Part shown: positions 2,444-43,863 of the stretch, one piece after another
Numbering within the stretch: position 1 is the stretch's first letter
Layout: each line of letters opens with the position of its first letter
Origin: a virus
Virus record (IMG/VR): IMGVR_UViG_3300008267_000019
Coordinates: 20,122-84,121 of that record
DNA length: 64,000 bases
Strand: one strand, 5' to 3'
Made by a program: the position numbers and the translations under genes
Notes under the pieces: generated by a model
Databases searched by the model: none
What the model saw: the letters and a program-made list of their open reading frames with translations, nothing else
What the model was told of the DNA's origin: nothing

Positions 2444-3276
2444 TGCACGCAGGAAAAACAGTTTCATATAAAGCAATCCTTGATAAAACTATCAGGGATT
2501 TTGGCTTTAATTATGATATAATCGAAGAAGAAGGTATTGAATGGTTAGCAGAGTTCATGGCTCACACCAATGTAGGCGTGACTATGGAGGAAAAAATTGC
2601 ATATATGGAAATATGTGATGCTCGCGGAGATCTTCCTTTTGATTTATATAAAATTGGCCAAGCAGCACATATTGAAGGAGTAGAAACTATTGAAGAAGCT
2701 ATGTGTGGTAAAGGACGTATGTTTCCAATGAGATGGAAAACAGATTACTTCCACAAACGCTACCATAGAGACGATAGAGATTATACAACAGAATCTAGAG
2801 AAACTTATACTGTAGGTCAAGGATATATTTTCCCAAGTTTTAATAGAGGCATTGTAGCAATGAGTTACACTGCTATACCAACAGACGATTGCGGATACCC
2901 TACTATTCCTGCAGAGCAAGAATGGTTAGAAGCAGGGGCTCATTATATTGCATATAAAATTGCTAGAAAACTGTGGTTAAGAAATGAATTAGCTTCAGAT
3001 AAGTTTCAAATTATAGAACGAGATAGAGATTGGTATTTTGCACAAGCAGTAAATCATGCTAAACAATGGAATGGTGTTGATGAAGCAGAAACAGTTAAAA
3101 ACTCTGTACTTAGAACTATTCCTGATGTACAAGCGCATGCAAGCTTCTTTGCTAATATGCAATTACCTGAACAACGTAAATTTAGACCTAAAGCAGGTGT
3201 AGGTTTAGTATCAACAATTAATGTATTAACTCACGGACAAAATCCAGCAACTGTAGTACCATCTAACACTCCATAA
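2443..3276 (+). CDS. Tail tubular/ring protein (P22 gp4-like class in crAss phages)
   Basis: 277 aa immediately before the stabilisation protein; Y.AIPTDD.GYP.IP and W.FAQA motifs. Confidence 0.7.
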   Translation: MHAGKTVSYKAILDKTIRDFGFNYDIIEEEGIEWLAEFMAHTNVGVTMEEKIAYMEICDARGDLPFDLYKIGQAAHIEGVETIEEAMCGKGRMFPMRWKTDYFHKRYHRDDRDYTTESRETYTVGQGYIFPSFNRGIVAMSYTAIPTDDCGYPTIPAEQEWLEAGAHYIAYKIARKLWLRNELASDKFQIIERDRDWYFAQAVNHAKQWNGVDEAETVKNSVLRTIPDVQAHASFFANMQLPEQRKFRPKAGVGLVSTINVLTHGQNPATVVPSNTP

Positions 3277-6200
3277 TGGAATCTCAAATAAATACATATC
3301 AGGGAATGAATAAAGATACTGCTTACGATACTATCGAAGCATCTCTTTATATTGACGCAAAAGATATTAGAATAACAACCACCAACGGAGAATCTATTGG
3401 TGGTTTTACTAATATTAAAGGAACAGAGTTTTCTTTTGCAATACCTTTAAGAGGCACATTTCCTAGTAACCCTGTACAAGTTTGGGTAGCAGACAATCCT
3501 GCAGTTATAGGATATACTACTATTAGAAATAAAATAATTTTATTTGTTGCTGATGATAGCAATGAAAAAGGTTGGATATATGAAGTACAATATGATCCTG
3601 CAACTAGGCAAGTACTATCAGGATTTCCATTATTAAAATATTATAATTCTCTTTTATATTTTAAAAAAGAATGGCCTATAGAAGCACTTGGTCGCTATGA
3701 ATCGGATACTATACAAAGAGTTTATTGGACAGATTATAATAATTATTTTAGAGCAATAAATTTAGAAGAAGCAGATTTAGCTAATCTTCCTGTAGGACAA
3801 ATAGATATTTTTCCAGATGTAACTTACACACAACCTTTATTAAAAACAATTTCAGGAGGAGGAGCTTTACTATCAGGGGAATATCAAATAAGTTACAGAT
3901 TAATTACAGTAGATGGCAAACAAACTTTAATAGCTCCTCCAAGTAATTTAATACATATAACATCTCCTTCAGAAACATTAATACAATCAGCGCAATATAC
4001 GGGAGATCTTGCTGCAGTCAATACAGGCAAAGCAATTAGTATAGAAGTTGACACAAGTAATTATGGAAATTTTGATAAAATAGAATTTATTGCAGTATAT
4101 CATTCTGCACAAAATTCTGTCCCTGTAGTTACTAGTATAGAACAGATGGGAATAGGTTCCGCTACTACAGTTACTTTTGTTTATACAGGAACTGAAGGAA
4201 CGGCTATACCTGTAGAGTTATTTACTTTTACTACTAAAAATTACGCATTCAAAACTCCTAAAACTATTACTCAAAAAGATAGTTCTTTAGTAATAGCTAA
4301 TATAAAAGGCTCTAATATTTCTGTACAAGATTTACTTACAACAGGAAGTTTTGATGCAAAAACTAGAAGATATAGAAACAATGGCGTAGACCCCATTGCT
4401 CCTCCATTTCCTCCAGGACCAGGTAATGATTTACTAAATGCATTTAACGAAGAGTATAATAAAGATGCACATTGGAGTAGAGATTGGAATATAAATTCTC
4501 AATATAGATATCAATCTGATGGAGCAAGACTAGGTGGCGAAGGACCTAATATTTCATATACGTTTCATTTAGAAACTTACACAATGGATGGTAGTGCTAC
4601 ACCAGGTTTTGCCAATGTAGCTAATATACCAGATTTTGTATATACTCACGATTTAAATGACGGTTATGGAACCTACGCTAACACTACTTTTCCTAATCAT
4701 GCTTCTCCATTTATATCAGGATTATTAAGAGGATACAAACGCGGTGAAACATATCGTTTTGGAATTGTGTTTTATACTATTAAAGGGGAAACTACTTTTG
4801 TTGAATATATAGGTGATATTAAATTTCCAGATATTTCTGAGGAAGATTCTGTAAATAATTCTTCTACTACTAAATTTTGGCCTTTATCTCAAACAGGTAC
4901 TCCTTCTACAGTAACCCTAGGTTATTCTATGGGTATACAATTTAGTATAGATTTAAGTTCTTGTCCAGAGTTGTTAAACCAAATTACAGGTTATCAAATA
5001 GTAAGAGTAGAAAGAACAGAAGCTGATAAACGACGATTAACTCAAGGTATTTATAAAGGATTTTATTTTAATAGAGTATTAGCTCCAAACCGTTCATTTA
5101 ATTTTGATTTACAAATAGAAAATCAAGAAGAAGTTTTACACCTTTACCCTTACTACCCAGATACTTTAGAAGACAATGGATGTTTTTCAACTTTAGGGGG
5201 AACAGGTTATATTCCGCAATATTTGCAATATATTATAAAAGGAGAATATTTAGGATTTTATAGCCCAGAAATTTCTTATGATTATAATAATGTTAGAGAT
5301 ATAGCAAGAAACTTAGGAAGTAATCCTTGTTTACTTTTAACAGGAGCATATGGAGTTAAAGATAAAAATTCTCCTAGCCCAATTGATTTAAACTCTATAG
5401 ATTTAGGAATAAAAGATTATGATTATAGAGTCACTTTAAGATCTACATTACCTGTAACATTTAATAGTATTAACAATATTAAAAAATGGAAATTTATTAA
5501 TCTATTTACAATGGAAGATACTAGTGACTACAAAACAAAAGTCACTGGAGATTTAGATGGATATTACATGCGTAATTATTGGTGTTTAGATAATTGGTAT
5601 TATAAAGGACTTCCTGGCCCAGGTATAGATCCTAATGATCCTTCTAATGGAGTAAACTACGCTAGTACTTCTTATGATCTTGCAGAATTTTATAAAGCAG
5701 GTACAAGTTTAGTAGGAAAAATAGATTTAATACAAAATGATCTTTTAACGGGAGCTCCTTTGCCTTTAAATTCTATAGCATTAACTTCTTATTTTTGGAC
5801 TCCATTTAATGGTAATGATCCTAACGGAAATCCTAAAATATTAATTAGAAATATAAGCACAGGAGCAAGTATAAACGCTACTGATACTAATACTTATAAC
5901 AATGCTTACCCTATACTAGATTTTTTAATTCCCAAAAAAGAAGTTTATGGAGGATCTTCTCAAGATGCTCTAGAAGCTAATATATTTATTCCTGCGTCTC
6001 CATTTATAAGTTCAAGTAATTTAGTTGGATTAACAGATACATTTATTGTATTTGGTGGAGATATATTTATTAATATGTTTACTCTTCAACCTGGTATGAC
6101 AGAATTTAATGAAGAGTTTTATCAAAATAATATTGCATTTAATAATCTTAGATATATACAAAATAATAGTGTTACCGAAGTTTATCCTGTTGAGACTAGT

Positions 6201-7685
6201 ATAAACATAGATTTAGCAGCAGGTTCTACAATTAAAACAGAAGTTAAATATGATTACAACGGCAATGAATATACATTATTTAGACAAGAATTAAATAATA
6301 GTTTTATAGGATATGCACAGAGTAATACAATGTATAGTTACAACACAGTATATTCTAGAGAAAGTAAAGATGTTACATTTTTTATAGAACCTGCAGGAAG
6401 TAACGGCAGTTCTAATTTAAATGATATTAGAGCATATTTATCTAATGTAAAAATTAACGGAGAAACTATAGATTCCTGGACAAAGTTTGGATCAAATAAT
6501 TATTATGATGTTGATGATTATGGACCTATAAATAAAATATTAAACTATAAAGATTCCGTATTTTTTATTCAAGATAAAGCTGTAGGTATTTATGCCATAA
6601 ACAGAGCCGCTATTACTACTACTGCTGACGGAGTTCCTACACAATTAGGTCTTGGTCAAGGATTTGGGAAACATCAATATTATTCTAAAGAAAATGGTAG
6701 TATACATCAATATGGAGTAAAAGTTGCCCCAGAAGGAGTTTACTTTTTAGATGCAATTCATAGAAAAATATTTTTACTTCAAAGCTCTGGAACTCAAAGT
6801 CAAAATGATCCTATATCAGAACTTAAAGGAATGCATAGTTATATACAAGCATTACCTAATGGAGTATTCTTACGCAAAGAAGATGGAGGAGATAATCCTA
6901 TTTTAAAACGCGGAATTACTATAGGAAAAGATAAAATAAATGATGAAATTTTATTTACTTTTTTAGGAACAGGAGACTTTGTAGTATTAGGTCCTAATAC
7001 AACTTATACTGTAGGCACAATTGTATATGAGCCTGCTAGTGGATTATATTATATAGTAACTTCAGAATTTACATCAGGAGAAACTAAACTACAGGCTATA
7101 AGAGATTTATTAGAAAACTCTCAAGTAGCAACAGAAAAAGATAATTTTAGAGATGCAACTCTTGTATTTGACGTTTTAATGAATTCTTTTTCTTCTACGT
7201 ATTCAGCAAAGCCAACTATTTATATAGAAAACGGAGATATAATTCAGAGTCCTGATCCAAATAATAACAATCTTATATATACTCATAATATAGGAACTTA
7301 TGGAGAATTTTATGGTAATGTAGAAGAATGTTATTTAACTCTTGTAATTAATCCTCAAGCAGATATAAATAAAATTCTTAGAACTTTAGAATTTAATTCT
7401 ATAGTAAGAGATGATAATAAAGTAATAGATAGAACAGAAACTATTACTGCATTTCAAATTACTACTGAATATCAAGATACAGGTAAAGTGCCTTATAGCT
7501 CTGGAAGAATTAAAAGAAAGTTTGATAAATGGCGTGTAAAAATTCCTAGAAATCAATTAAGTATTTCACAACAAGATCGTTTGAGAAGTACTCATTTTGT
7601 TTTAACTTTATATTTTGATAATTTAAATCAAAAACAAATTATAGTAAATAGATTAATTTCTTATGTAGACTATCAAATGTTCTAA
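3276..7685 (+). CDS. Tail stabilisation/muzzle protein (P22 gp10-like)
   Basis: 1469 aa; GMNKD N-terminus, VYWTD.NN, GYKRGETYRFGIVFY, GGDIFI, NGE.IDSWT.F, YG.INKI and KFDKWR motifs characteristic of the crAss muzzle protein. Confidence 0.8.
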   Translation: MESQINTYQGMNKDTAYDTIEASLYIDAKDIRITTTNGESIGGFTNIKGTEFSFAIPLRGTFPSNPVQVWVADNPAVIGYTTIRNKIILFVADDSNEKGWIYEVQYDPATRQVLSGFPLLKYYNSLLYFKKEWPIEALGRYESDTIQRVYWTDYNNYFRAINLEEADLANLPVGQIDIFPDVTYTQPLLKTISGGGALLSGEYQISYRLITVDGKQTLIAPPSNLIHITSPSETLIQSAQYTGDLAAVNTGKAISIEVDTSNYGNFDKIEFIAVYHSAQNSVPVVTSIEQMGIGSATTVTFVYTGTEGTAIPVELFTFTTKNYAFKTPKTITQKDSSLVIANIKGSNISVQDLLTTGSFDAKTRRYRNNGVDPIAPPFPPGPGNDLLNAFNEEYNKDAHWSRDWNINSQYRYQSDGARLGGEGPNISYTFHLETYTMDGSATPGFANVANIPDFVYTHDLNDGYGTYANTTFPNHASPFISGLLRGYKRGETYRFGIVFYTIKGETTFVEYIGDIKFPDISEEDSVNNSSTTKFWPLSQTGTPSTVTLGYSMGIQFSIDLSSCPELLNQITGYQIVRVERTEADKRRLTQGIYKGFYFNRVLAPNRSFNFDLQIENQEEVLHLYPYYPDTLEDNGCFSTLGGTGYIPQYLQYIIKGEYLGFYSPEISYDYNNVRDIARNLGSNPCLLLTGAYGVKDKNSPSPIDLNSIDLGIKDYDYRVTLRSTLPVTFNSINNIKKWKFINLFTMEDTSDYKTKVTGDLDGYYMRNYWCLDNWYYKGLPGPGIDPNDPSNGVNYASTSYDLAEFYKAGTSLVGKIDLIQNDLLTGAPLPLNSIALTSYFWTPFNGNDPNGNPKILIRNISTGASINATDTNTYNNAYPILDFLIPKKEVYGGSSQDALEANIFIPASPFISSSNLVGLTDTFIVFGGDIFINMFTLQPGMTEFNEEFYQNNIAFNNLRYIQNNSVTEVYPVETSINIDLAAGSTIKTEVKYDYNGNEYTLFRQELNNSFIGYAQSNTMYSYNTVYSRESKDVTFFIEPAGSNGSSNLNDIRAYLSNVKINGETIDSWTKFGSNNYYDVDDYGPINKILNYKDSVFFIQDKAVGIYAINRAAITTTADGVPTQLGLGQGFGKHQYYSKENGSIHQYGVKVAPEGVYFLDAIHRKIFLLQSSGTQSQNDPISELKGMHSYIQALPNGVFLRKEDGGDNPILKRGITIGKDKINDEILFTFLGTGDFVVLGPNTTYTVGTIVYEPASGLYYIVTSEFTSGETKLQAIRDLLENSQVATEKDNFRDATLVFDVLMNSFSSTYSAKPTIYIENGDIIQSPDPNNNNLIYTHNIGTYGEFYGNVEECYLTLVINPQADINKILRTLEFNSIVRDDNKVIDRTETITAFQITTEYQDTGKVPYSSGRIKRKFDKWRVKIPRNQLSISQQDRLRSTHFVLTLYFDNLNQKQIIVNRLISYVDYQMF

Positions 7686-10600
7686 TGAAAAATAAACCTA
7701 AAAATATACCTACTTACTACAAGTTTCCTGGAACTCCAGTCTATAGAGATACTACAGCTTTACCTTTTAAAGCTGGTGGTAGTTTGTTTCCATCTTTATA
7801 TGGAAATTCTTTTTTAGAAAATAATGATAAAGAAAAAAAGAAAAAAAGAAAAACAAAAGAAGATTTAAATGAATCATCTACACAAGGTGATATAGTAGAA
7901 GCTATAGAAACAGAAACAGGACTTGATCCAAATCTTACATATTATAAAGGACCAACAAACTGGGGTGATAGATTATTTGCAAAAGATGCATCAGGTGCTT
8001 GGTATTCAATAGAAGCAGGTCAAGCATTACCTTTTTCTTATGATCCTGATTACTTAAATCAAAATACTACAAAAGCAAGTGATGAAGAAGCATTAGGAAG
8101 ACTGCTTCAATCAAAAACACTTAATGAAGTAGCTGTAACTGGAGAAAAACTTTCTTGGCAAAAGTATCAAGATGAATATGAAAAATCTAATCCTAGAGGA
8201 GAATATTTAGAAAAAAGAAAAAAGAATTATTTAAAATCACATCCTGGATTAAACAGAGCAATGGGAGTTACTATGAATAATTTCCCAGAAGATGCTCTTG
8301 CAAGATTTAATGACAAGTATAATAAAGAAAGAAATACTTATGCACTTGAAAAATTTGTAGATAAAGATTTAGAAGAAGATATAGACAAAAGAGGACGATG
8401 GATAGATGATGTAGAAAAAAGTCCAGGACTTTATAATATGGTTATTAACTCTAAATATGGATATAATTTAAAACCAAATATATTTTCAAGAACGCTTGCA
8501 GGCGCAGAAAAATTAGTAGACTGGATACCAGGAGTAGATCCTCTTTTAGATTGGGCTACAGGTAAAAATAGATATAATGACATTCTTACTGAACAAGAAC
8601 AAAAAGATGTAACAGGATGGGATGCTTTAGCATTTACAGAATATCCTGGTCAAGTTTTAGCTAATATGATAGCAGAAGGAATAGATCCTAATTCAAATGC
8701 TTCTTGGGAAACATTTTCAGGAAGTTCTTCTCCAATTGTTACAGCAAATCCTCAATTAGAAACAATGACCCAATTAGCAACGGGAGCAATTGGTTTACCA
8801 TTTAATGTAATGGGAATGGCTAATTTAGCTAAAAATGTAGGAAAAGGAGTTTCTAATGTAGCTAAAGCTAATTATTATGATCTTTTTAAAAAAGGAAATA
8901 ATTCTTTTAATGATATTAATTTTCAAAATTTTAAAACTGCCGAAAATACAGCAGGAGAATTAGCACAAGGAGTAAATACAATAGATAATACAGGGGCAAC
9001 TGCATCATTAAATACTGGACAAAATGCTACAGGAGCAAATAAAATATTAACAAATGAAGAAATTAAAAACATAATAGTAAACGAACAAGTACCTAGTCCA
9101 AAAACATTATTATCAACTGAAGGAGAAATACTTCCTGAGTCTGCTTCATGGCATACTATAATGGAAGATTTTAAAACAAAATTACGCGAAGTAGATCTTA
9201 CAAAACCTTTAACAGATGAAGATTATATTAAAGCTGCTAATGCAATTAATCCTGAAATAAGTAAAGTAGCAAGTTTAGATGAAATTAAAGCTGTACATCA
9301 AGAAGCTCTTGATTATTTTAAAGGAGAAAAAGATCCTGAAGATATAGCATTATATATAAGAGATGCATTAGCAGAAAAATTACCATCAATAGGAGAAGCT
9401 CCTACTATGGTTGACGGGTATCCAACATATTCTGCAGGATTTTCAGTAAGTCGTTCTTTAGATCCTAATGCTGCTCAATATTATGGACCAAAAAGTGTTT
9501 TTGATAAAGCAAAGGACTGGGGATATGATTTAAATAATCTAACTCCTAAGCAACAAAATATGTTAGCTGCTTATACAAAAGGATATGATTTTCCTATAAA
9601 TATTGGTAAAAGATTTGGATTTCAAGATATGGGTATTAGAGGAGATTTTTATCAAAAAAATGCTAATACATTACTTGACGCTATTCTTGCTAATAAATTT
9701 CCTAATGACACCTCAGTAATAAGAAGTATAAAAACAAATTATCCGCTTACTTTATTAGATAAAAATAAATTATTAGAAACAAAGGATATATCATTATCAG
9801 AAACACCAAGTACTAAATATAGAGGAAACCTTCAAAAAAGTGATGTAATAGGAGATAAAGGATTTTTATCTACTAGTTTAATTCCAGATTTAACATGGGG
9901 TAAAGCTAGATTAGGAGAAAGAATTATGATTCCAGGAGGAAATAAACAATCTTATGGTTTTCCTAATGCATCTTCAGCAAGTTCTTCTCCTTTTGAAGGA
10001 GAAATAGTGTTGCCATCTGGTTTAGGAAGAGAAGTTATTGACGTATTACCTGATAATCTAGCAAATGTTGTCGGTTATAAATATATAACAAAAATATTAA
10101 ATCCATATTTAATGCCTGCAGCAATAGGAACAACTGCTACTGGAACTTTTTTTGGAAATAATAATAATAATTATGGAGCTTCTTTTGATACTCCTAATAT
10201 GCAAGAATATTTGAATTCTTTAATGTGGGATTCTGGAAAATCTGTATTATTAAATTCAGGTTATTTTAAAGCATACGGAGGCCCATTAAATGATAGAAAC
10301 ATTAATGGCAAATTATTGCAAAGTACTTACGCTAGTCCTTTAGGAAACATGTTTAGAGAAGGAGGACCTTTTGGTGAAGATAAAGGAACCTTTGATTATG
10401 CTACTAGTATTTATGCTTCTCAACCAGGTAATTATTATAATAATGGCGGGGAAATAAATCCAATGAATGCAATGATGAAAGCAAGACTTGCTTATGCAAA
10501 TGAGTTTGGTAATCCTGCAGCAAAAAGAATGGTAAATTTACCTGATAATCCTTATATTTTTACAGGACAAGAGCCTTATACAACTCCAGATATGGCAGGT

Positions 10601-11206
10601 GCATTAGGAACACATTATATGTTTTCTCAAGATAATTATGCTATTCCCACAATACAACAAGGAGAAAATGGACAATTATATTATAATCAAAATGCAAATG
10701 CAGCTGATAAAGAGGCAATAAAATTTGATAGCCCAGAAGATGCTGAATATTTTGCAGAACATTATAAAGAAGTTTCTCCAGGGTTTATTAATAATAATTA
10801 TAGAACAGGAGGACAATTTCCTAGACCATATAGTTTACCAGAAGATAGTTTTAAACAAGGAGGAAGAAATTTACATAACAGTGTTTATGCTTCTTCTAAT
10901 GCTCAATATCCTGCTATATATAAATTAGGAGGAAATATTAATGTATATAAACAAGGAGGCAGTGTATTATCAATGTCTAATACACCTCAATTACAAGGTG
11001 AAGGAAAAGATTTAACTGTACCAGAAAATGCTTATATTTACGCTGGCGGAGGATTAATTAAACGTGCTGATGGAAGTTACTCACAACGTGGTTTATGGGA
11101 TAACATTCGTGCAGCAGCACAACGTAATAAAGCAATGGGTAAAACAGGTAAACAACCTACAAAACAAATGTTACAACAAGAAAAAAAGATTAATAAAAAT
11201 AAATAA
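7685..11206 (+). CDS. Virion cargo polyvalent protein with a VIP2/Alt-like ADP-ribosyltransferase domain and [FYM]xxGG repeats
   Basis: 1173 aa with no Cys seen; YT..Y...IN, VIR(680)S, DKGFLS(729)TS and FE(771)GE(773)IVLP.G give an R-S-E ART signature; nine xxxGG motifs. Confidence 0.7.
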   Translation: MKNKPKNIPTYYKFPGTPVYRDTTALPFKAGGSLFPSLYGNSFLENNDKEKKKKRKTKEDLNESSTQGDIVEAIETETGLDPNLTYYKGPTNWGDRLFAKDASGAWYSIEAGQALPFSYDPDYLNQNTTKASDEEALGRLLQSKTLNEVAVTGEKLSWQKYQDEYEKSNPRGEYLEKRKKNYLKSHPGLNRAMGVTMNNFPEDALARFNDKYNKERNTYALEKFVDKDLEEDIDKRGRWIDDVEKSPGLYNMVINSKYGYNLKPNIFSRTLAGAEKLVDWIPGVDPLLDWATGKNRYNDILTEQEQKDVTGWDALAFTEYPGQVLANMIAEGIDPNSNASWETFSGSSSPIVTANPQLETMTQLATGAIGLPFNVMGMANLAKNVGKGVSNVAKANYYDLFKKGNNSFNDINFQNFKTAENTAGELAQGVNTIDNTGATASLNTGQNATGANKILTNEEIKNIIVNEQVPSPKTLLSTEGEILPESASWHTIMEDFKTKLREVDLTKPLTDEDYIKAANAINPEISKVASLDEIKAVHQEALDYFKGEKDPEDIALYIRDALAEKLPSIGEAPTMVDGYPTYSAGFSVSRSLDPNAAQYYGPKSVFDKAKDWGYDLNNLTPKQQNMLAAYTKGYDFPINIGKRFGFQDMGIRGDFYQKNANTLLDAILANKFPNDTSVIRSIKTNYPLTLLDKNKLLETKDISLSETPSTKYRGNLQKSDVIGDKGFLSTSLIPDLTWGKARLGERIMIPGGNKQSYGFPNASSASSSPFEGEIVLPSGLGREVIDVLPDNLANVVGYKYITKILNPYLMPAAIGTTATGTFFGNNNNNYGASFDTPNMQEYLNSLMWDSGKSVLLNSGYFKAYGGPLNDRNINGKLLQSTYASPLGNMFREGGPFGEDKGTFDYATSIYASQPGNYYNNGGEINPMNAMMKARLAYANEFGNPAAKRMVNLPDNPYIFTGQEPYTTPDMAGALGTHYMFSQDNYAIPTIQQGENGQLYYNQNANAADKEAIKFDSPEDAEYFAEHYKEVSPGFINNNYRTGGQFPRPYSLPEDSFKQGGRNLHNSVYASSNAQYPAIYKLGGNINVYKQGGSVLSMSNTPQLQGEGKDLTVPENAYIYAGGGLIKRADGSYSQRGLWDNIRAAAQRNKAMGKTGKQPTKQMLQQEKKINKNK

Positions 11207-11212
11207 GATACT

Positions 11213-14200
11213 ATGAACTTTAAATCCAACGCTGCATATAAAAGATGGTTAGGATATGGCCATGCTTCAGGAGAATTTGCTAAGACTCCTGGAAATCAAC
11301 CTGTAAGCATAAAAGGACAATCTCATAAAGTAAAACATGAAATGGGAGGTAATATGTATGCTGACGGAGGAAAGTTTAATAATAGTGGCTTCAAAGCTTT
11401 GCCTGTAGAGATTCAGAATAAAATTAAAAAGAACTTTATGGCTATGGGAGGAATGATGCCTACACAAATGCCTATGCAAAATCCTTATAATTCAAATTTT
11501 TTAAATAGCGGAATAACTCAAAATTTTGCATTTGGAGGAAGAATAAATAGTTATGCTGGAGGAGGTATGTTAGATAACCAACTTACGCAATTTACTAATG
11601 GGGGTAAACATGAAGAAAATCCAATAGGCGGAATTCCTCAAGGGTTTTCCCCTGATGGTAGAGTTAATTTAGTAGAGCAAGGAGAAACTAAATTAAATTC
11701 TGCAGATTATATATTTTCTGATACTTTAAAAGTTACTAAAGATATTGCGCTTGATTATGGTTTACCTAAAGATACTATAGGTAAAACATTTGCAGATGCT
11801 TCTAAAAAAATGAATAGACCAAATTCTCGTAGAGAAAATGATACTATAGAAGAAGTAGCAAAGCAAAGAGACTTAGATAATTTAATGCAAGCTCAAGAAG
11901 ATTTTAAACAAAGAGATCTTCAAAAAGACATAGACATGATGGCTGAAAAACATCCTGAGTTTATGCAACAAATGATGGGTCAAGGACAGCCAGAAGGAAT
12001 ACCTCAAGAATTATTAGCGCAAGGAGTTCCACCAGATCAAATGATGGCAGCAGAAGAAATGATGGGAGGACAAACTCCACAATCTGTGCAACCAATGGGA
12101 ATGCCGCAAGGAATGCCTATGGACCCTAATCAAATTCCGCCAGAGATGTTAGCGCAAATGCCTGAAGCACAAATGGGACAACCTGTTATGGCTTATGGAG
12201 GACATATATATAAATGCGGAGGTAAGATGTATAACTTTGGAGGACATATGTATGCTAATGGAGGTCATATGTATGGAGACGGAGGGTTTTTTCAAGGAAT
12301 GGGAAATGTATTACAATCTGTAGCGCCTATAGCAGGACAAGCTCTTAATACTGTTATTCCTGGTTCTAGTGTAGTAATTTCTGGAGCTCTTAGTGGTTTA
12401 GGAGCAGGATTACAAAATGTAGGCACAGGAGCAGATTTTAAAGAAGTTGCTAAAGATGTAGGAATAGGCGCAGCTAAAGGTGCTATTGGAGGTATTGTAC
12501 CAGGAAAAGATATAAGTAAATTAGGACAATTAGCATTAGACACTGCTCCTCAAGTAATGGATGTATTAGGAAATACTATAAATGCTAATACTAATGATGC
12601 CTCAGAAATGAGTTTAATACGACAACAAGAAGCGTTAAATGCTCCTAAAATGGTATCAGGTTATAATATGTCTCCTACTCCTATGCAAATGAAGTACGGT
12701 GGATATAAAGCACAAGCACCTTGGCATAATTTTCCACAATATACTCCTAACTATCCTGGTAACGCAGGTCCTATGTATATGGGATTAGGAACTAATTTAT
12801 TTGCTGATGGAGGAATGATGATGCCTGGCCCAGGAGATCCTCCTAAAAATGATGCAACAACTTTAGATGAAGTTGTAGTAACTGCTGGTCCACAAGGTCC
12901 TGTTATAATAGACAATCCTATATACAGTAATTTAATGGAACAATATACTGCAGGATTACCTAAAGGAGGAACTTACAATAATAAAACTTGGTCTGGAACA
13001 TCCGTAAGAGATGCAGATCTTACAAGAAAACTTACTGATGAAGAACTAGCTAATTGGACAAAATATTATCAAAATAGAACTAGACAAGAAATAAATAGTT
13101 TAAAAGCACAAGGACAAGATTATAGTGAAAAATTAGCTCAATATAATTTTATACCTAAAGCAATGTATGTTCCCGCTATTCCTACAGGAATGGGAGAAGA
13201 TTATTATTCTAATCCAGAAAATTGGTATTATAATACAAAACATTTAGGAGAAAATTATTCTAAACCTTCTAAACAAATAGAAGATATTTTTGCTGTTAAT
13301 ACTACACCTCAAATTATTCAAGAACAAGCCCCTGTATTACCTACTATTACAATGGCTGAAGCAGAAGCTATGAAAAATAAAGCAATGCAAGAATTTGGTT
13401 CTGGTGTATTACAAGGAAAAAATTGGAATTATAATGAACAACCTAAAAATTATACAGGAACTCAAGCAGGGGGAGGTATGTTTAATTACTGGGATGAAAG
13501 TGATCCTACTCAAGCAGCTAATCAAAAAGAATATGAACAATTTATTCAAGATCAATTAGTTGCAAATCCTGATAAAGTTTTATACTCTAATTTATCAGGA
13601 GTAGATATGTATTCCAATCCTAACTATGAAGCTGAATTAGCAAAAAATATTAATGAAGGTCCTCAAGGTCATTTATATGATCAATTTATTGCTAAAAAAT
13701 ATAATGAGTATATAAATAACCCAGAATGGGTAAATAGTTTATCAGAAGAAGATAAAGCAAAATATTTATTTGATAATAGTAAATATAATGTTCAAATGAA
13801 TGTCCCAGAAGTAATGGGATTTGCTAATGGAGGTTATATAAATAGAAATAATACTATGTATTCCCCTGACCTTACTTATGCTGCAAAGATGGGAGGTCGT
13901 ATATATAACTACGGAGGAGGGTTAAAAAATCCTTTAATGTCTTTACCTCAAGATAATTTTATTAGATATGATGAAGGGGGTAAAATAGTACAAGGAGCAG
14001 GCACAGATACTTATCAATATAAATATGAAAATGGCAATTACTATACTGCTAAAAAAGGAACTGCTGATTGGAAAAAAGTAGAACCTACAAATAAAACTGT
14101 TTATACTGCTGTAAAAACTTTAATAGATAATTATAAACCAGAAGTTGGAGGTCCAGGCGGAGGTAGTCAATATGATTTAATGATGTCTAATATTGCAGCA

Positions 14201-15013
14201 GAAGAATCTGGTGAATTAATTCCCCCTACTATGGCAGAAGTAGAGGCTAATCGTGCTATTGCAGACGCACAAGAAAAAATGCAAAATGCAGAAACTTCTG
14301 AAGAATACCAAGAAGGTGTTAAAGAATATGAATATGGAGTAAGAACTGCAGAAGAAGCATTAAAAGATAAAAATTTAAAATTATCTATGGCACAAAGTAT
14401 AGGCTCAGGATTAGCAATGGCTGCTCCTGCTGCATATAATTTAACTACAGGATTATTTGGAAAACCAGAACAATTAGATTATAAAAATTATGAGATTGCT
14501 GCTGATATAACTCCTTATGAATATAATATTAATCCTCAGTTAGCAATGGCAAATCAGACTTTTGCACAAGCTCAAGAAGCTGCTAGAAATGCTTCTAATG
14601 CAGGAAATTATTTATCTAATATGCAAGGATTAGCTAACTTGAGAAATCAAACTGTTGGAGAGTTATACACTAATAAAGAAAATTTAGATGCTGCTCAAAT
14701 ACAAGCCGCTAAGACTGCTAATAAACAAATTGAAACTGATAACTTAACTAGAAGATTAGAAGTAGAAGATTTTAACAGATTATCTAAAGCACAAAAAACT
14801 GAAGCTCTTAAAGCTGGATTAGTGCAAATGGCAGACATAGGTAAAAATATGGAAGAGAAAAAAATGCAGTTAGCATTAATTAAAGCAATGGCTCCTGATT
14901 TTGCTAATACTTTATCTTATAGTACTATAGGAGAACAACTTTTAGAATATTTAAAAAATCAAAAAGCTGCAGGAAATACTTCAGCAGAAAGTGAAATATT
15001 AAAAACTAAATAA
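11213..15013 (+). CDS. Virion cargo/ejection protein (crAss cargo protein 1-like)
   Basis: 1266 aa; GGKHEENP.GG...VEQGET....DYIFSD.LK...TFADASKK block, M/Q/P-rich linker, Gly/Ala-rich putative membrane helices and about 17 xxxGG motifs; position downstream of the muzzle gene. Confidence 0.65.
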   Translation: MNFKSNAAYKRWLGYGHASGEFAKTPGNQPVSIKGQSHKVKHEMGGNMYADGGKFNNSGFKALPVEIQNKIKKNFMAMGGMMPTQMPMQNPYNSNFLNSGITQNFAFGGRINSYAGGGMLDNQLTQFTNGGKHEENPIGGIPQGFSPDGRVNLVEQGETKLNSADYIFSDTLKVTKDIALDYGLPKDTIGKTFADASKKMNRPNSRRENDTIEEVAKQRDLDNLMQAQEDFKQRDLQKDIDMMAEKHPEFMQQMMGQGQPEGIPQELLAQGVPPDQMMAAEEMMGGQTPQSVQPMGMPQGMPMDPNQIPPEMLAQMPEAQMGQPVMAYGGHIYKCGGKMYNFGGHMYANGGHMYGDGGFFQGMGNVLQSVAPIAGQALNTVIPGSSVVISGALSGLGAGLQNVGTGADFKEVAKDVGIGAAKGAIGGIVPGKDISKLGQLALDTAPQVMDVLGNTINANTNDASEMSLIRQQEALNAPKMVSGYNMSPTPMQMKYGGYKAQAPWHNFPQYTPNYPGNAGPMYMGLGTNLFADGGMMMPGPGDPPKNDATTLDEVVVTAGPQGPVIIDNPIYSNLMEQYTAGLPKGGTYNNKTWSGTSVRDADLTRKLTDEELANWTKYYQNRTRQEINSLKAQGQDYSEKLAQYNFIPKAMYVPAIPTGMGEDYYSNPENWYYNTKHLGENYSKPSKQIEDIFAVNTTPQIIQEQAPVLPTITMAEAEAMKNKAMQEFGSGVLQGKNWNYNEQPKNYTGTQAGGGMFNYWDESDPTQAANQKEYEQFIQDQLVANPDKVLYSNLSGVDMYSNPNYEAELAKNINEGPQGHLYDQFIAKKYNEYINNPEWVNSLSEEDKAKYLFDNSKYNVQMNVPEVMGFANGGYINRNNTMYSPDLTYAAKMGGRIYNYGGGLKNPLMSLPQDNFIRYDEGGKIVQGAGTDTYQYKYENGNYYTAKKGTADWKKVEPTNKTVYTAVKTLIDNYKPEVGGPGGGSQYDLMMSNIAAEESGELIPPTMAEVEANRAIADAQEKMQNAETSEEYQEGVKEYEYGVRTAEEALKDKNLKLSMAQSIGSGLAMAAPAAYNLTTGLFGKPEQLDYKNYEIAADITPYEYNINPQLAMANQTFAQAQEAARNASNAGNYLSNMQGLANLRNQTVGELYTNKENLDAAQIQAAKTANKQIETDNLTRRLEVEDFNRLSKAQKTEALKAGLVQMADIGKNMEEKKMQLALIKAMAPDFANTLSYSTIGEQLLEYLKNQKAAGNTSAESEILKTK

Positions 15014-17651: not shown

Positions 17652-20600
17652 ATGAAGGCTCCTAAAAAAGAACTTAAACCAAATCCTTTACATCAACAAT
17701 TAAAAGATTTTGCTACAAAAAATGCAGATAATATAGGATATAACAAAGAATATGTAGAAGAATTAAGTACTATAACTCCTGAAAATACTTCATATAAAGG
17801 AGTAGAAGCTTTACATGCTCCTAAAGAAGCCGATATTTATGATCCATATGAAGCATATATAAATAGAACAGAACTTCATAGTGGAAGATTTGATATAAAT
17901 GAATTAAATAGGCTTAGAGCAGAAAATCAATCTAATTGGGCCCAGGCAGGTAATGCTATAGGACAACTTGCTGTTAACATAGTTCCTCAAATTGCTTCTA
18001 CTGTTAGTAACATGATAAATGTTCCAGGATGGTTTTCTGCAGAAGCAGCTGCTGCTAATCCTATACAAGAATGGGCTAGTGGAATAAAAGAATGGTCTCA
18101 AGAAGCTATGCCTATTTATGAGGAAACTCCAGGGCAAATGAATATGGCAGATCCTGCATGGTGGTTTAGCAGAGGAGAAGGTTTAATAGAATCTATGACA
18201 TCTTTTGCTATACCAGGAGGTATAGCAGGTAAAGCTGTATCTGCAGGTTTTAAAGGATTAGGAGCAGTAACGAGAGGTAAACAATTAGTAAGAGCTGTAT
18301 TAGGAGCAGAAAAGTCTGCAGGGTTATTAAAAGGAATGAGCACATTAGGCACAGCTGCTTTATTAAATCAAGCAGAAGGTGCTACAATTGCTGCAGATGT
18401 TTATAAAAATACTTTAGATTATCAATTAAAGAAAAATGGAGGTAATGTAGACTTAGCTAAAAAGATGGCATCAGAAGCTGCAGCTACTGCTATGAGTATT
18501 AATAGAATTAATATTTTACTAAACCTTACTTCTGCTAGTGCTTTTTTAACTCCTTTTAAACAAACAAGAAATCTTTTAAAAACTCAAGGAATAGGTTCTA
18601 CTTTAAGTAAAATAGGTCTAGAAGCAGGTCAAGAAGCTACAGAAGAATTAATAAACCTTGTAGGACAAAAAGCAGGAGAAGCAAAAGGACGAGAGGAAGA
18701 AGATTACGTAGCTAAAGGTCTTGAAGCTATTGGTACAATGGAAGGTTTTGAATCTGTTTTTTTAGGAGCTTTAGGCGGTGCGGGTCAAACAGGATTAGTA
18801 GATGCTAGTCAATATTCTAAATATGGAGCAGGATCAACTAAAGATGCAGAAGGTAATAGAATTAGTTATGCCCAATATCAAAGTGATCTTTATAATCAAC
18901 AACAACAAACAATTAAAGAATTAGAAGACCAAGGTGTTCAAGTAAGTGATTCTTTAATGAATGTTAAAGATGCTGTTGTATTTAATGAAAAAAGAAATAA
19001 AGCAGCTGCTGAAGGAAATCAAGAGGAGTATGATAGACTTAATAATCAAATGTTTGAAAATCAAGCATTAAAAGCATTTCAATCTGGAACTACTAAAGTA
19101 TTAGAAAATTTATACAAAGCTGAAGCAGAAAGAGATGTTGAAGAAGTTGGACAAGAATATATTGACAAAGCAAATCAAGCTGTAAAAGATTTACAAACTC
19201 TTGAAAGTGTTTATAATAATTTTGAAGAATATACTAATGTAAATGATATATTCTTTAATCGTGCTAATAAAATTAGAACAGATAGAAATTTAGGATACAT
19301 TCAAGATGCTGCTAAAACTAATAATTTAGAATTAGCGCAATTAGTAAGAAACATAGCAGGTAAATATGAATATGACGTTGAAAGAGAAGTTCTTTATAAA
19401 AAAGAAGGAGAAGTTGAACGTACAGAAACAGTAACAGAAAAAGCACCATTGACATACTCAATGAGTGACTTAGAAAATAACACAGGACAAACAGAAGGAC
19501 AGAAAAAGGTTTATAATAAATTTTTAAAAGAAGTAAAAAAACTTGATGCTTATAAAAGAGAAGTGGGTTACCAACAAGCTATAAGTAATGGAGAAAAAAT
19601 TTTAGAAGATAATAATAAAGAATTTGCAGAGTTAACAAGTCCTGAAGCACAAGAAGCTGCTTTATTAAAACAAGAAAAAGTAGCAGCTATTAAAAGTGCT
19701 TATAAAGAAGTAGCAAGTACTAGTTCTAGAGCAAGAATACAAGCTCTAATGGACACTATTGAAGATCCTGATTTTAAAAGAGTAGCACAATTAAGATTAG
19801 ATGCTTTAGATAAAGCTAAAGCAAGTAACTTACAACAAAAGAAAAAAGACTTTGCTACTAAAACAATGGAGTCTAAAATTTCTAAAGCTAGTTTAGAAGA
19901 GTTAGCAACTATTCAAGAAGAAATTAATAAGGCAGATCCTAATGATATTTCTAAAACAGCTAAAGCAGCTTTATTAAATAAAGTAGAATTTAGAGCTAGA
20001 CAGTTAAATAATCAAGTATTAGATCCACAAGAAACCGCAGAAATTCAAGATCCTTTTGCTGACTTTGATTCTCGGTCCCCAGAAGAATTAGAAAATGAAA
20101 TAGAGTTAGAACAAAAATCCTTTGATACTACTATTCCTTCAGATTTTCCTAATAATGAAAAAGAAGGTAAAGATGTAGAAACAGAAGTAGAAAATGCTGC
20201 TGTAGATTTATTAGGTTCTGATAAGAGTTTAATAATAGGTACAGATGAAAACGGCAACTTAGTTTATAACTATGAAAAAAGTGCTGAAGGTTACAATCGC
20301 GCAGCTTTCTTATCAAGGGAGTTTAATCAAACAGAAAATGTAGGAATAGTAGATCGAGAAGAAATAACTAATGATGTTATTAATTCTAAATTACTAGATC
20401 CTGATTTTTTGTTAGCAGGTACTGCATTAACAATGGAAGTTGACAATGATTACACAGGAGAAAAATACGACCCAACTTCTACAACAAGAGAAACTATTGC
20501 TTGGCCTCTTAGATTAAAACAAATTATAGATAAATATGAAGTATTAGGACAAGACTATAGACAATCATATGAATATATAACAGAAGCTCCTATTAAAGTA

Positions 20601-23600
20601 ACTACAGCAGATGGACAAACAGTATTTTATGTACATGACAATGCTTGGTATAAAGCAGAAAATTTAAGTGCTAGTCCTGAAGAAATTGCTATTGATAAAG
20701 AAAAGAATTTCTTAATAAGAAAAGCTATTATCTCTAAAGGAAAAGTAAATAGCAAAGTAGATTATAAAAGCTTTGGAAGATTATTTAAAACAGCTGACGG
20801 TAAAAAAGTGACTGTATCAGAAGCTATGCCTGATAAAAATTTAGTATTAGGTATAGGAAAAGATGGAGCTATAGAACTTTCTGGAAATAGTTCAGAAGTT
20901 ATGAAAGATGCTAAAATCTTAAAGAATAATCCTGAAGATGGTAGGTTATATGCAGTTGTTAAAGTAGGACCTAATGAATACATGCCTATTCCTTTACAAA
21001 GAAAACCTATAAACCAAGAAACTGTAGATTCAATTATTTTAGCAATTGAAGCTCACTTAACTAATGATCCTGAAAATGCTGTAGTAAAAGCTATTGCAGA
21101 ATCTTCTTTAGGATTAGACATTACTACTACTAAAGGATTATCAGATTACTTGAGTCAGTTTATTTACATATATCCTACTGAAGGTAAAGAAGGTTTAGAA
21201 AATGCATTAATTAGCAACGGTGGTACTAAAAGTACTTTAAAGTCTTCTATGCCATTAATTACTGTAACTCCTACAGGAATACAATTTGGTAGACCAGGAA
21301 TACAAGCGGCCAATTATATGGACGCTAATAATAATAAGATAGTACAGTATGCTATTAATATTTCTCAAAATTTTAATAAAACTACTGCAGGAGAAGCTAG
21401 AAATAGTTTAAACTTAAATAAACTAAGAACAGTATTAGAATCAGGTAAAGTATTAGCTAATGCTAATAAAAATACTTTAAGCAAAGATGGTAACTCTGTA
21501 ATTATATTAAATCCTGAAGGAGATACTAAAACAGATACTTATAGAGAGTTTGTAAAAGAGAATTACGAAAGTAATATCTTGTCAGTAAACATAGGCTCAG
21601 ATGAAAATCCTAAATGGGCCTATACTATACAACCTACTATTTTATTTGACACAGCATTTGCTAACATGCCTACTCAAGTAGTTGCATCTAAAGCACAGTC
21701 TACTGTAGCACCTGTACCTAGCCAAACTGCACGTACTACACAAGAACCTACTCAAGCTGTAGAAAAACTTTATTATAAAGGAGTAAATCCTACAGTAGAT
21801 ACAATTGTAACTTCCGATGATAGGGTATTACTTATTAAACGTAAAGAAGGAGCTACAGAAGGGGGCAAGTGGGCAATTCCTGGCGGCTTTGTAGATACTA
21901 ATTCTAAACCAGGTGAAGCTTGGACTCCAGGAAAAGAAACAGTAGAAGAAGCAGCTGTTAGAGAAATTAAAGAAGAAACAGGTCTTAAAATTTCTCCAAA
22001 GTCAGTAGTATTTTCTGAAAAAATTGATGATAGATCTAGAGATCCTAGAAACACAGAAGAGTCTTGGATAGAGAATTCTCTTTATACTGTTAATATTCCA
22101 GCAAAACAAATGCAAAAAGCAAAAGGAGCAGACGATGCTTCTGAAGCTAGATGGTTTACTAAAGAAGAACTATCTCAAATGCCTGCATCTGATTTTGCTT
22201 TTGATCACAGTAAAGTATTAGAAAGAAATAATTTAAGGACACCTTTAACAGCTAATAATAATATAGAATCTCAAAAAGCTGATATAGAAAGAAGAAGACA
22301 AAAAGCAATTGAATTTAATAAAGGAGCTAAACCTGTTACTGAAGAAGATTTTAAAGAATTTGATGAAAATTTTGTACTTACAGAAGAATATAAAAAATTA
22401 TTAGGTACGTATGATTTTGATTTAGATCCAGAATCTAGATCTGATAATGATTTAGTAGGTAATATTAAATCTATACAAGAAGGTATAGATTTAATTAATG
22501 CCAAATATGATGCAGAGTTAGCAGCTTTAGAACAACCTTCTACAGACATAGAAGTTAAAAGAGCCGATATAGAAAGAAGAAAAGCTTTAAGTAAAATAGT
22601 TGAGTTAGACACAAGAATATCTGATGAAGAAGTCGATGCAGTACAACCTGAACCAGGAGTAAGGGTTACTTATTATTTACCAGAAGGTAAAACTACAGAT
22701 GGAAGAGATATTTCAAAAATACCCAGAGGTTCTATTGAAAGATATACTACAGAAACTAAAGTTTTTTATGGTTTTGAAGAAGCTGAACAAGAAGCAAAAG
22801 CGTGGATTAAATCTAAATATGATGAAGAACTAGCAGCTTTAGAAGCTGCTCCTATTGCATCTGAGATTTCTGTAGAAGAGCAAGTAGAACAAAATGTTCC
22901 TACATCATTAGCAGAAAATATATTAGCGCAAGGAGTTGATTTAGCAGAAATTAATGATACTATCGAAGCATTAAATAGTGGTAATATTAATGAAGAAGCT
23001 TTAGCAGAAGCGGGTTATGAATCTACAGAACAAGCATTAGCAGCTTATCAAGAGGCTAAAGATTTATATAATAAAAGAGCTGAAGATACCGAGACTATTA
23101 CTTTGCCTAACGGTGAGACTATCACTATTACAGGTAATGATTTAGATATTAACGATCTAGCAGAGGATGAAATAGATGATTTTTTAGTTAGAACATTAAC
23201 TAAAGAACAAATAGAAGCGCAAAAAGGAGAAATAGATGAGATGATCATCTATGGTTTAAATACTACTACTCAGTCATCTTTAATAGCTTTTTTATCAGCT
23301 GATATAATTAATGCTGCTTTAAATGCTAAAGAAGTTGGAGGCAAACGCAGCGTAAAGGCTAAAGAAATCTTAGACAAGCATGAAGAGTCTTTTAAAATAT
23401 TATCTGAATTCTTTAAAAAGAAAAATTTAGTAAATAGAGCAAAACATGTTGATGCTGTATTAAGTCAATTTGATAAAGTAAGAAGATTAGTAAACCAAAA
23501 CATGAGTAAGTTTACTACAGGAAATTTATCAGAAGAAGTAGAATACGATGATAATCAGCAAGCAGTAGGACTAGAGCGTACCTACGCAGATGATTGGACC

Positions 23601-42684: not shown

Positions 42685-43863
42685 TTAAAGTTCTAATTTT
42701 ATTACTTTGCCAGGAAGGCTGTTATTTAATTCTGATTTTTCTGATAATACCCAAAGAATATCTTTATTAGGCTTTAGACTAGTGTCACATTCACCGTCAG
42801 TAAAATAGATTAAGCTAGTATATTCTTTGTGTTGCATATAATATTCTAACACAGGGTCAAAACTAGTTCCACCACGGCCAGAGACTTTTAACTCAAACTT
42901 GCCTTTATAATCTTCTATACTATTAATTTTAGTGTCACATTGTATAATAGTAATATCTACTCCTGCTTTATGTAAATGATAAATCTCATTCATAAATTCT
43001 TTTAATTCATCATTACTTACTGAACCAGAAGTGTCGATACCTAATAGCATCTTTTGGCGCATTTTAATCTTCAGACCTGGATTGTCAGAGTATCTTTTGT
43101 TATCTTTTCTACGAAGTTTTTTAGTAAATATTTTAGTGCTTACACCAGTATACCTTCTAATATATCCTCGCCAATCAAACTTAGGTTTTAAGATTTCTTC
43201 GATAATTATCAATCCCTCTATTTCTCCAGGAACATGGCCGCGTTTTTTAAGAGTCTCTTCTTTAGCATCAGACATTAGTTTTTGAACTTGTCGCTCAATT
43301 AACTTTTGCTCAGCTTCAGATAAATCTTCAAACTCTTCCCAAGTGCTATGATCAGGTAAATTGCCATTATCTAGATCATCTAAAAGCTTATCCATGTTCT
43401 CATTACCAGAAGTTCCAGTTTTATCTTTTTGATCTTTAAAATCTCTTAGCTTATCATAATAATATCTACAGCCTGCTTTGCGATCTAATTTTAGATCTTC
43501 ATAGTTATCTATATCAATGCCGCCTTCGGGAAGATATTCTTTATTGATATATTGATTAATCTCCATATCCATAGCTACGTTAGCAAGTTTACGATCAGAG
43601 AATTTAAAGAATATACCTAGATGATTAAAAGCAATATGAAGCAGCTCATGTTTTAATAAACCTAATTTGTGATCATCAGATAAACTATCCCAAAACTCAG
43701 GATTAATAGCAAGTTGATAGTTAATACTATTTTTACTAACACCCGCAGTAGGAAGATTATTACGCCAGACTTTATTTAGTTTAATCAAAAAGAGCCCGTA
43801 ATAGGGCTCCTTAAGTATTAAATCCTTGCTGATTTTACTCAGCGATTCAACTTTATCTCTCAT
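42685..43863 (-). CDS. HExxH metallopeptidase fused to a vWA domain (DUF2201-type)
   Basis: HELLH, N.AMD.EINQ, MIDAS motif DTSGS, GGT.F and FTDG. Confidence 0.85.
   Translation of the reverse strand: MRDKVESLSKISKDLILKEPYYGLFLIKLNKVWRNNLPTAGVSKNSINYQLAINPEFWDSLSDDHKLGLLKHELLHIAFNHLGIFFKFSDRKLANVAMDMEINQYINKEYLPEGGIDIDNYEDLKLDRKAGCRYYYDKLRDFKDQKDKTGTSGNENMDKLLDDLDNGNLPDHSTWEEFEDLSEAEQKLIERQVQKLMSDAKEETLKKRGHVPGEIEGLIIIEEILKPKFDWRGYIRRYTGVSTKIFTKKLRRKDNKRYSDNPGLKIKMRQKMLLGIDTSGSVSNDELKEFMNEIYHLHKAGVDITIIQCDTKINSIEDYKGKFELKVSGRGGTSFDPVLEYYMQHKEYTSLIYFTDGECDTSLKPNKDILWVLSEKSELNNSLPGKVIKLEL

Follow-up and report, generated by a model that had tools for sequence, protein, structure and literature searches.

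What does a short peptide ending in two glycines do when it recurs two dozen times in two adjacent phage proteins? The question is raised by a 64,000-nucleotide stretch of DNA (here called the window), which covers bases 20122 to 84121 of the 84,121-bp virus record IMGVR_UViG_3300008267_000019. The record has direct terminal repeats, and its source is a crAss-like phage. Protein A (1173 aa; window positions 7685 to 11206) and protein B (1266 aa; 11213 to 15013) are encoded one after the other on the plus strand, as are all features given below unless noted, and are most likely packed into the particle and injected. Judged by its sequence, B is a member of the cargo protein 1 (C1) family, and A is not. 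A first-pass annotation of this DNA had noticed the peptide in both proteins and offered two explanations: protease sites that cut a polyprotein into separate effectors, or repeated capsid-binding or packaging tags. We find that the motif is strongly enriched in A and B, conserved across their families, located in linkers and at module borders, and confined to the gene slot after the muzzle gene. The reading that we favor, tentatively, is that the copies are multivalent docking or packing handles that stay uncut.

Enrichment of a Gly-Gly motif in two adjacent proteins

All 26 pentapeptides listed in the first-pass annotation are present in A and B where it had placed them, from FKAGG, which starts at 7766, to YDEGG, which ends at 13981. 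Its wording of the motif, [FYM]-x-x-G-G, fits most of them but not all. There are 24 strict copies, 9 in A and 15 in B, whereas KAYGG, HEMGG, and AKMGG have their hydrophobic residue at position -1, not -3, relative to the Gly-Gly pair (GG). One strict copy had been overlooked, MIPGG at A 748-752, inside the ADP-ribosyltransferase (ART) domain. A hydrophobic residue stands two places after GG in 20 of the 24 strict copies.

Composition-preserving shuffles (2000 per protein) gave a mean of 0.98 copies and a maximum of 6 for A and a mean of 1.71 and a maximum of 7 for B, ruling out a composition artefact. The comparison with the rest of the proteome, which the annotation had proposed as a check, bore out the enrichment. 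When the strict motif was counted in open reading frames (ORFs) of at least 100 aa across the whole 84,121-bp genome, A and B held 24 copies in 2,439 aa (9.84 per 1000), compared to 7 copies in 22,799 aa (0.31 per 1000) for the other 60 ORFs (Poisson P ~8e-28). With a hydrophobic residue two places after GG also required, 20 copies remain in A and B and 1 in the other 60 ORFs.

The DNA of the copies is diverged (62 to 74% over 42 nucleotides), except for an array of heptads in B, whose DNA is a tandem repeat with a period of 21 nucleotides and 72 to 80% matches (12197 to 12285). This array is the only DNA tandem repeat among the copies, and a DNA repeat or recombination signal was ruled out. 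Most copies are encoded as GGA GGN, which raises the possibility of a Shine-Dalgarno-like GGAGG followed by an internal start. A signal at the DNA level cannot account for the aromatic -3 position. The share of sites with Met two places after GG also counts against internal starts, since it is 24% over all sites and falls to 7% at isolated copies. Shine-Dalgarno sequences are little used in Bacteroidota. The earlier view that the DNA has diverged while selection acts on the peptide is supported, the motif GGs being conserved islands within variable stretches.

Conservation across crass-like phages and confinement to one gene slot

B carries a crAss_CARG1 domain (Pfam PF25725, 102.9 bits) at residues 106-238 (11528 to 11926), and B 105-243 aligns to residues 424-551 of gp45, the C1 protein of Bacteroides phage crAss001 (PDB 7qog_M, E=3.7e-20); the CARG1 test gave no match in A. 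B has 325 homologues at E<=1e-3, and the 120 of these that were listed, on which all figures for 120 C1 homologues rest, contain 1,560 copies of [FYMW]xxGG, compared to 222.5 expected from shuffles. The logo of their 2,783 GG sites has Y or F at -3 in 45% (about sixfold enriched), A at -2, M, Y, F, or C at -1, and M, L, or I two residues after GG. At the 1,830 isolated sites, F, Y, or M occupies -3 in 49%, A, K, or R is found at -2, and L, I, F, or M stands two after GG in 44%. The commonest GG-to-GG spacing is 7 residues, with 513 cases; the runner-up has 192. In the C1 family, a Cys directly before GG (-1) is enriched about 47-fold, and C335, the single cysteine of B (12215 to 12217), holds this position in the array unit YKCGG and is conserved in most of the family.

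Conservation differs among the copies of B. The N-terminal half of CARG1, which holds FAFGG, YAGGG, and FTNGG, is the most conserved part of the family and nearly invariant (G117, G118, F127, G130, G131, and others). The heptad array at B 326-358 (12188 to 12286) consists of five GG-x-M/I-Y-x-x units (MAYGG, HIYKCGG, KMYNFGG, HMYANGG, and HMYGDGG), of which the first three are invariant or nearly so, with G329, G330, G336, G337, Y340, and G343 invariant in 56 aligned homologues. Farther downstream, six isolated copies (MKYGG, FADGG, FANGG, AKMGG, YNYGG, and YDEGG; 12689 to 13981) are scattered through the variable middle of B. Among 48 distant homologues, the GGs of the copies at 496, 533, 873, and 901 are far more conserved than their flanks (G533 and G534 are kept in 88% and 79%, compared to 18% for the flanks), and those at 894 and 922 exceed their flanks weakly at most. 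GGs of B that do not belong to the motif, at 585, 753, and 979, are not conserved. The conserved GG islands persist over 36-49% identity.

Protein A has just 7 homologues of similar length, and a search with A 840-1173 returned 1369 representative proteins at E<=1e-3. The 142 newly listed among these contain 829 motif copies, compared to 124.4 expected.

Where does the motif lie within phage genomes? We examined 79 IMG/VR loci found with the B alignment and called an ORF motif-rich if its copies numbered 5 or more and reached 3 times the expectation. The 78 CARG1 ORFs in these loci have 667 copies compared to 101.5 expected, and 64 of them are motif-rich. The other 593 ORFs have 284 copies compared to 193.9 expected; 132 of these copies fall in 17 motif-rich ORFs, all of which lie on the same strand as the CARG1 ORF and directly upstream of it, the slot of protein A. 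A second set comprises 56 viral loci with a widespread ~115-aa module that is also present in A. A muzzle-like ORF ends at the start of the module ORF in 48 of them (one of the 48 was confirmed by Pfam, at 63.9 bits), and at least 5 of the other 8 loci lack upstream sequence. The ORFs that follow in the module loci are motif-rich too (35 ORFs), and all other ORFs there have 472 copies compared to 160.9 expected. Together, the counts from the CARG1 loci and the module loci place the motif in the slot after the muzzle gene, with or without CARG1, indicating that in crass-like phages at large it is a mark of the products of this slot. A general cargo tag was ruled out, since the 867-aa putative C2 and the three giant RNA polymerase (RNAP)-associated ORFs of the source phage have 0 to 1 copies. 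The Flavobacterium phage FpV4 group is an exception to the pattern, with 0 copies in gp30 and gp31.

Motif copies in linkers and at module borders

Do the copies sit at the borders of modules, as had been claimed? An AlphaFold2 model of B 1-1200, built from 56 aligned sequences, has a mean predicted local distance difference test score (pLDDT) of 53.8, with confident modules at about 1-40, 54-77, 162-250, 601-670, 760-850, 923-975, and 1007-1200. Each GG sits in a segment with pLDDT below 50, and residues 81-160 have values of 25-39. Homology blocks among 127 proteins mark the same joints. Their starts peak at the aromatic residue (318 of 5,083 clustered starts), and their ends peak at the second Gly (368 of 4,908) and two residues later (354). 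Endpoints fall between -5 and +8 of a copy in 20.5% of starts and 30.0% of ends, compared to 12.1% for random positions; block endpoints are not independent events, so no probability is attached to these figures. The less redundant set of 142 representatives has the same peaks (178 of 3,253 and 270 of 3,804), with 30-34% of endpoints within 10 residues compared to ~12.5%.

The A-family alignment shows what is exchanged at these joints. Alternative cassettes occur between YNNGG and YRTGG, an insert lies between YKLGG and YKQGG, and an 830-residue ART-bearing block of A stands between FKAGG of the leader and KAYGG. In P0126, a relative, nothing separates the same leader from the PLND... unit, which in A comes after KAYGG, 830 residues later. 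The border claim thus stands for the GGs of B, the block ends, and the insertions and cassette swaps at copies, and falls short in that 5 of the 10 low-confidence linkers of B contain no strict copy and some exchanges in the A family involve no motif. Likewise, the ART-bearing region is indeed flanked by two copies, but the flanked block spans 830 residues, and the nearest copies lie 580 residues before and 81 after the ART match.

Why should one peptide mark such joints? It is possible, although we rather doubt it, that the copies are proteolytic sites and that A and B are polyproteins from which a leader, separate effectors, and structural fragments are released. The leader would stay in the tail, effectors such as ART would be injected as free proteins, and a remnant would remain on the portal. 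The low-confidence linkers around all B copies, the homology blocks bounded by the aromatic residue and the second Gly, and the cassette swaps and insertions exactly at copies all speak for cutting, as do leaders of ~30 residues that end in the motif, the first copy lying within 50 residues of the N-terminus in 102 of the 120 C1 homologues (47 expected). Cutting accounts poorly for other features: heptad arrays would yield 7-mers, and copies 3 to 12 residues from the C-terminus are common. A copy lies within 12 residues of the C-terminus in 43 of 148 relatives of A (~12 expected), where cutting would free a stub only, which favors uncut joints.

A passive role is unlikely. Here each copy would be a stop and hinge, the last hydrophobic residue of a module followed by a Gly-Gly breaker, kept for unfolded storage or extrusion and having no specific partner. 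In the model, three copies do appear directly after predicted helices (MAMGG after 65-77, EMMGG after 275-283, and AKMGG after 887-892), the good helix formers A, K, and R are favored at -2, and the recurrent sequence ELTxEEIEEYxxGG reads as a helix ended by GG. However, ordinary linkers are less stereotyped than this, and a hinge leaves unexplained the hydrophobic residue two after GG, the invariant tandem array, the GG islands kept at such low identity, and the confinement to one gene slot.

Candidate proteases

Is there an enzyme that could cut at these sites? The consensus site of adenain is hydrophobic-x-G-G, with the hydrophobic residue at P4. The likeness to the Gly-Gly-directed proteases of adenovirus and African swine fever virus, which had been suggested for the motif, does not hold: the register is hydrophobic-x-x-GG, which puts the hydrophobic residue at P5 if the cut follows GG, and no clan-CE, C39, or S78 peptidase was found in six frames. 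For clan CE (PF00770 and PF02902) there was no six-frame match at E<=0.1, although with PF00770 no control genome reached the family cut-off either. The C39 peptidase of double-glycine leader systems (PF03412) had no six-frame match, its control matching in 7 of 14 genomes; the S78 prohead protease had none, with working controls; and the S77 prohead protease had none, but its control matched nowhere either. Pfam scans of all ORFs of at least 100 aa found no Gly-Gly-directed protease family. We count the absence of such a family from the genome in favor of uncut joints.

The only candidate protease among the likely packaged proteins is a putative SprT-like zincin domain (Pfam PF10263; HELIH, with HExxH at residue 1264) at 30847 to 31005, in the 1479-aa cargo ORF (27193 to 31632). 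Its score was 29.4 bits in the six-frame search, above the cut-off of 25.6, and 24.9 bits, just below it, when the ORF itself was scanned. The enzyme behind such cuts would be a virion zincin, either this SprT-like domain or HExxH domains acting in cis in relatives, or else a host enzyme, at work during maturation or after ejection. HExxH zincin motifs are present in 41 of 148 relatives of A, and none occurs in A or B. Zincin processing of polyvalent phage proteins is predicted in the accessible part of the study by Iyer et al. 2017 (PMC5512222). The SprT-like region is shared with gp32 of FpV4, a 4287-aa "virion structural protein" (28.6% identity, E=6e-8). FpV4-type phages keep this zincin region (gp32, HExxH at 4065) and have no copies in their cargo-slot proteins, which speaks against a link between motif and SprT-like domain and against cutting. 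Two further points count against cutting: the other cargo proteins of the source phage lack the motif, and a gel of crAss001 has bands of 85 and 100 kDa, close to full-length gp45 (90.8 kDa), although the bands are not assigned to proteins in the accessible part of that report (PMC6235969). Elsewhere in the window, a 392-aa ORF on the minus strand (42685 to 43863), in the replication block, combines a DUF2201_N putative metallopeptidase domain (HELLH) with a VWA-like domain; it was the one peptidase-type match in the Pfam scans of all ORFs.

Docking as the favored role of the joints

In crAss001, residues 425-552 of gp45 form the domain that is resolved and ordered on the portal wing, according to the accessible part of the structural report (PMC10172136). 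The three CARG1 copies of B align to gp45 residues 424-448. The N-terminal half of CARG1 is disordered in the B monomer model, and the homologous gp45 stretch, which starts with AFGG, is ordered on the portal, which favors docking. In addition, gp45 425-552, homologous to the part of B with these three copies, is reported as resolved in one piece, a result at odds with cutting there. The conserved 7-residue tandem array suggests multivalency, which suits binding and not cutting. We also count for docking the conservation on both sides of GG at isolated copies and the confinement of the motif to proteins encoded after the muzzle gene.

From these comparisons we tentatively infer that the copies bind and are not cut. 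The element [F/Y/M]-[A/K/R]-x-G-G-x-[L/I/F/M] is a conserved joint of C1 and its upstream neighbor in crAss-like phages. Proteins of the A and B type resemble beads on a string, with small folded modules, including enzymes such as ART, held between flexible segments, and the motif is placed in these segments, at protein ends, and as the 7-residue tandem array beside a membrane-like glycine-rich stretch. The handles may become ordered only once bound. Like the CARG1 domain, they might bind the 12-fold portal; the tail lumen or neighboring chains are probable further partners. Docking of this kind could keep largely unfolded cargo extended and ready for export and could mark proteins for this route.

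Might the partner be in the host instead? The copies would then be short epitopes that bind envelope proteins of the host, much as the disordered translocation domains of colicins do, and would help the proteins to cross the periplasm after ejection. We consider this very unlikely. The motif is restricted to proteins that should be the first to leave the virion, its copies lie in segments modeled as disordered, and homologues of B carry a peptidoglycan hydrolase domain (PF01832) and glycine-zipper domains, all of which would suit such a role. On the other hand, the CARG1 copies lie within the stretch that is portal-bound in the virion, and we know of no host partner for the motif. TonB-box-like peptides are present at 12863 to 12889 and 8120 to 8143; they recur in nearest relatives only (2 of 120 C1 homologues and 4 of 148 A relatives), which rules out a colicin-like coupling through TonB boxes.

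Several points weigh against uncut docking handles. One is gp45 of crAss001, the only C1 with a structure, which does not fit the family pattern: it has 3 strict copies compared to 1.38 expected, a number reached in 338 of 2000 shuffles. CARG1 is found in just 1 of 148 relatives of A, so that a second partner must be assumed. A thin alignment, and not disorder, may be part of the reason for the low pLDDT of the linkers. Cutting would fit the linker location, the motif-terminated leaders, and the cassettes just as well, and the HExxH motifs among the A relatives and the SprT-like domain in a cargo ORF weigh in its favor. Finally, the portal barrel is ~25 Å wide at its end, with gp45 segments, in 12 copies, on both sides of it, as given in the accessible part of the crAss001 report (PMC10172136). 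Twelve C1 chains passing through this barrel would be sterically awkward; the difficulty would be eased if C1 were cut, and cutting would account for the segments on both sides.

Architecture of proteins A and B and their surroundings

The N-terminal leader of A, ~30 residues long, is closed by FKAGG (7766 to 7780). The predicted ART domain (Pfam PF03496, 28.1 bits, cut-off 23.4) spans A 610-781 (9512 to 10027), and KAYGG, FREGG, YNNGG, YRTGG, FKQGG, YKLGG, YKQGG, and YAGGG form a C-terminal cluster (10268 to 11053). A contains no cysteine. The ~115-aa module lies at A 922-1037 (10448 to 10795), between YNNGG and YRTGG. The module (MMKARLAY...THYM...HYKxVSPGF) is strongly conserved and is found in hundreds of phage proteins, with no fixed place in the chain. 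It has no counterpart in Pfam, and its only matches in the protein atlas are unnamed viral clusters. Among the 142 listed representatives there are 113 stretches matching the module, in proteins of 131-3098 aa, with a motif copy within 14 residues upstream of 41 and downstream of 82. Stand-alone module proteins (131-298 aa) begin at an internal Met of the module and may be truncated gene calls. A ~35-residue mini-module, ELTxEEIEEYxxGG[YF][IV][IV]E[DE][IV]SVP..., found in P0125, P0182, P0187, P0211, and many A relatives, often follows the 115-aa module and is frequently the very C-terminus of the protein. A tblastn search of A 840-1173 against the phage collection gave no match, and Pfam scans of 8 relatives of A found no domain in 7 and VanY in the eighth.

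In B, the copies HEMGG, YADGG, and MAMGG (11336 to 11452) precede the CARG1 domain. Just 5' of the heptad array, B ~250-326 (11960 to 12190) is of low complexity and rich in Met, Gln, and Pro, with M297, Q299, M312, Q315, M316, and M326 nearly invariant in 56 homologues. The array is followed by a Gly-rich hydrophobic stretch (12287 to 12508) that resembles a glycine zipper; homologues carry Gly-zipper_Omp (PF13488), and the stretch may insert into a membrane.

The crassvirus muzzle protein gene (3276 to 7685; Pfam crAss_MUZ, 438.1 bits, and crAss_MUZ_C, 49.2 bits) is directly 5' of A, and the order continues with A, B, and ORFs of 867, 3018, 1479, and 1374 aa. The positions of these downstream ORFs match those of the crAss001 genes for C2 and the RNAP-associated cargo; the 867-aa ORF, in which Pfam and PHROGs matched nothing, is a putative C2 by position only. 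PHROGs also had no match for A or B. Synteny with crAss001 suggests that A is delivered with the DNA. The 3018-aa ORF of the cargo block (17652 to 26708) contains a NUDIX hydrolase domain (residues 1380-1523, 65.7 bits). Pfam matches elsewhere (record 1-20121 and window 35978-63228) include PAS-domain, ferritin/rubrerythrin-like, collagen-repeat, and spore-photoproduct-lyase-like proteins. The two ends of the record share a repeat of ~114 bp, as judged from its final 30 bases, which are found again at position 84, in line with its labeling as having direct terminal repeats; the CheckV completeness estimate for the record is only 64%.

Relation to known systems

The processing motif of the giant phages phiKZ and SPN3US is a short peptide that differs from [FYM]xxGG. 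In these phages a prohead protease cuts head, inner-body, and ejection proteins, as demonstrated there in the accessible parts of the reports (PMC5694885, PMC10052503). The likeness to A and B is that a single short peptide punctuates many proteins that are packaged or ejected; the difference is that no prohead protease family was found in the source phage (S78, and S77 in a search whose control was silent). Polymorphic toxins also have a short conserved peptide where variable cassettes join, such as VENN of CdiA and PxxxxDPxGL of Rhs, and so do the linker sites of MARTX toxins. A and B differ from these in motif and delivery machine and in having many joints in each protein, where the toxins have a single one in front of the C-terminal toxin part.

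Polyvalent proteins offer a closer comparison. As described in the accessible part of the study by Iyer et al. 2017 (PMC5512222), they are large multi-module proteins delivered with the DNA, and ART and peptidoglycan-hydrolase modules are shared features. A combines an ART domain, the widespread ~115-aa module, and mini-modules in one polypeptide, and zincin-like peptidase motifs are matched among the A relatives, though A and B themselves lack HExxH. By this analogy, A and B as a pair appear to behave like polyvalent proteins. The accessible part of that study treats domains and not a junction peptide, and the words "glycine" and "linker" are absent from it (PMC5512222).

The nearest known counterpart is gp45 of crAss001 (Bayfield et al. 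2023, PMC10172136), which shares with B the CARG1 domain, the position after the muzzle gene, and a conserved C-terminal helical region. Homologous copies open its portal-bound domain (AFGG, 425-428) and also lie beyond that domain (MFAYGG). In contrast to B, gp45 is not significantly enriched in the motif and has no heptad array; B differs in having CARG1 near its N-terminus, and the source phage differs from crAss001 in encoding a second motif-rich protein, A, with an ART domain. In the accessible text of the crAss001 paper (PMC10172136), "protease," "proteoly," and "cleav" are absent and the motif is not described. A crass review likewise contains none of the words "protease," "peptidase," and "proteolytic," and our literature search found no published description of the motif. 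On the sequence evidence, the finding is a conserved junction peptide in known cargo proteins.

Significance

Crassviruses are among the most abundant phages known. The structure of crAss001 left the question of how megadaltons of protein are stored and ejected ahead of the DNA, and a single short peptide that flags both the proteins ejected first and the seams of exchangeable modules provides an experimental handle on it. The motif is also a sequence signature for cargo and effector modules, such as ART and the ~115-aa module found in more than 1000 protein clusters, in genomes of uncultured phages where profile searches fail. If the joints are cut, they would represent a new phage polyprotein system, an autoprocessing string of effectors with a logic like that of MARTX toxins. 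If they are handles, as we tentatively favor, they would amount to a packaging or threading code.

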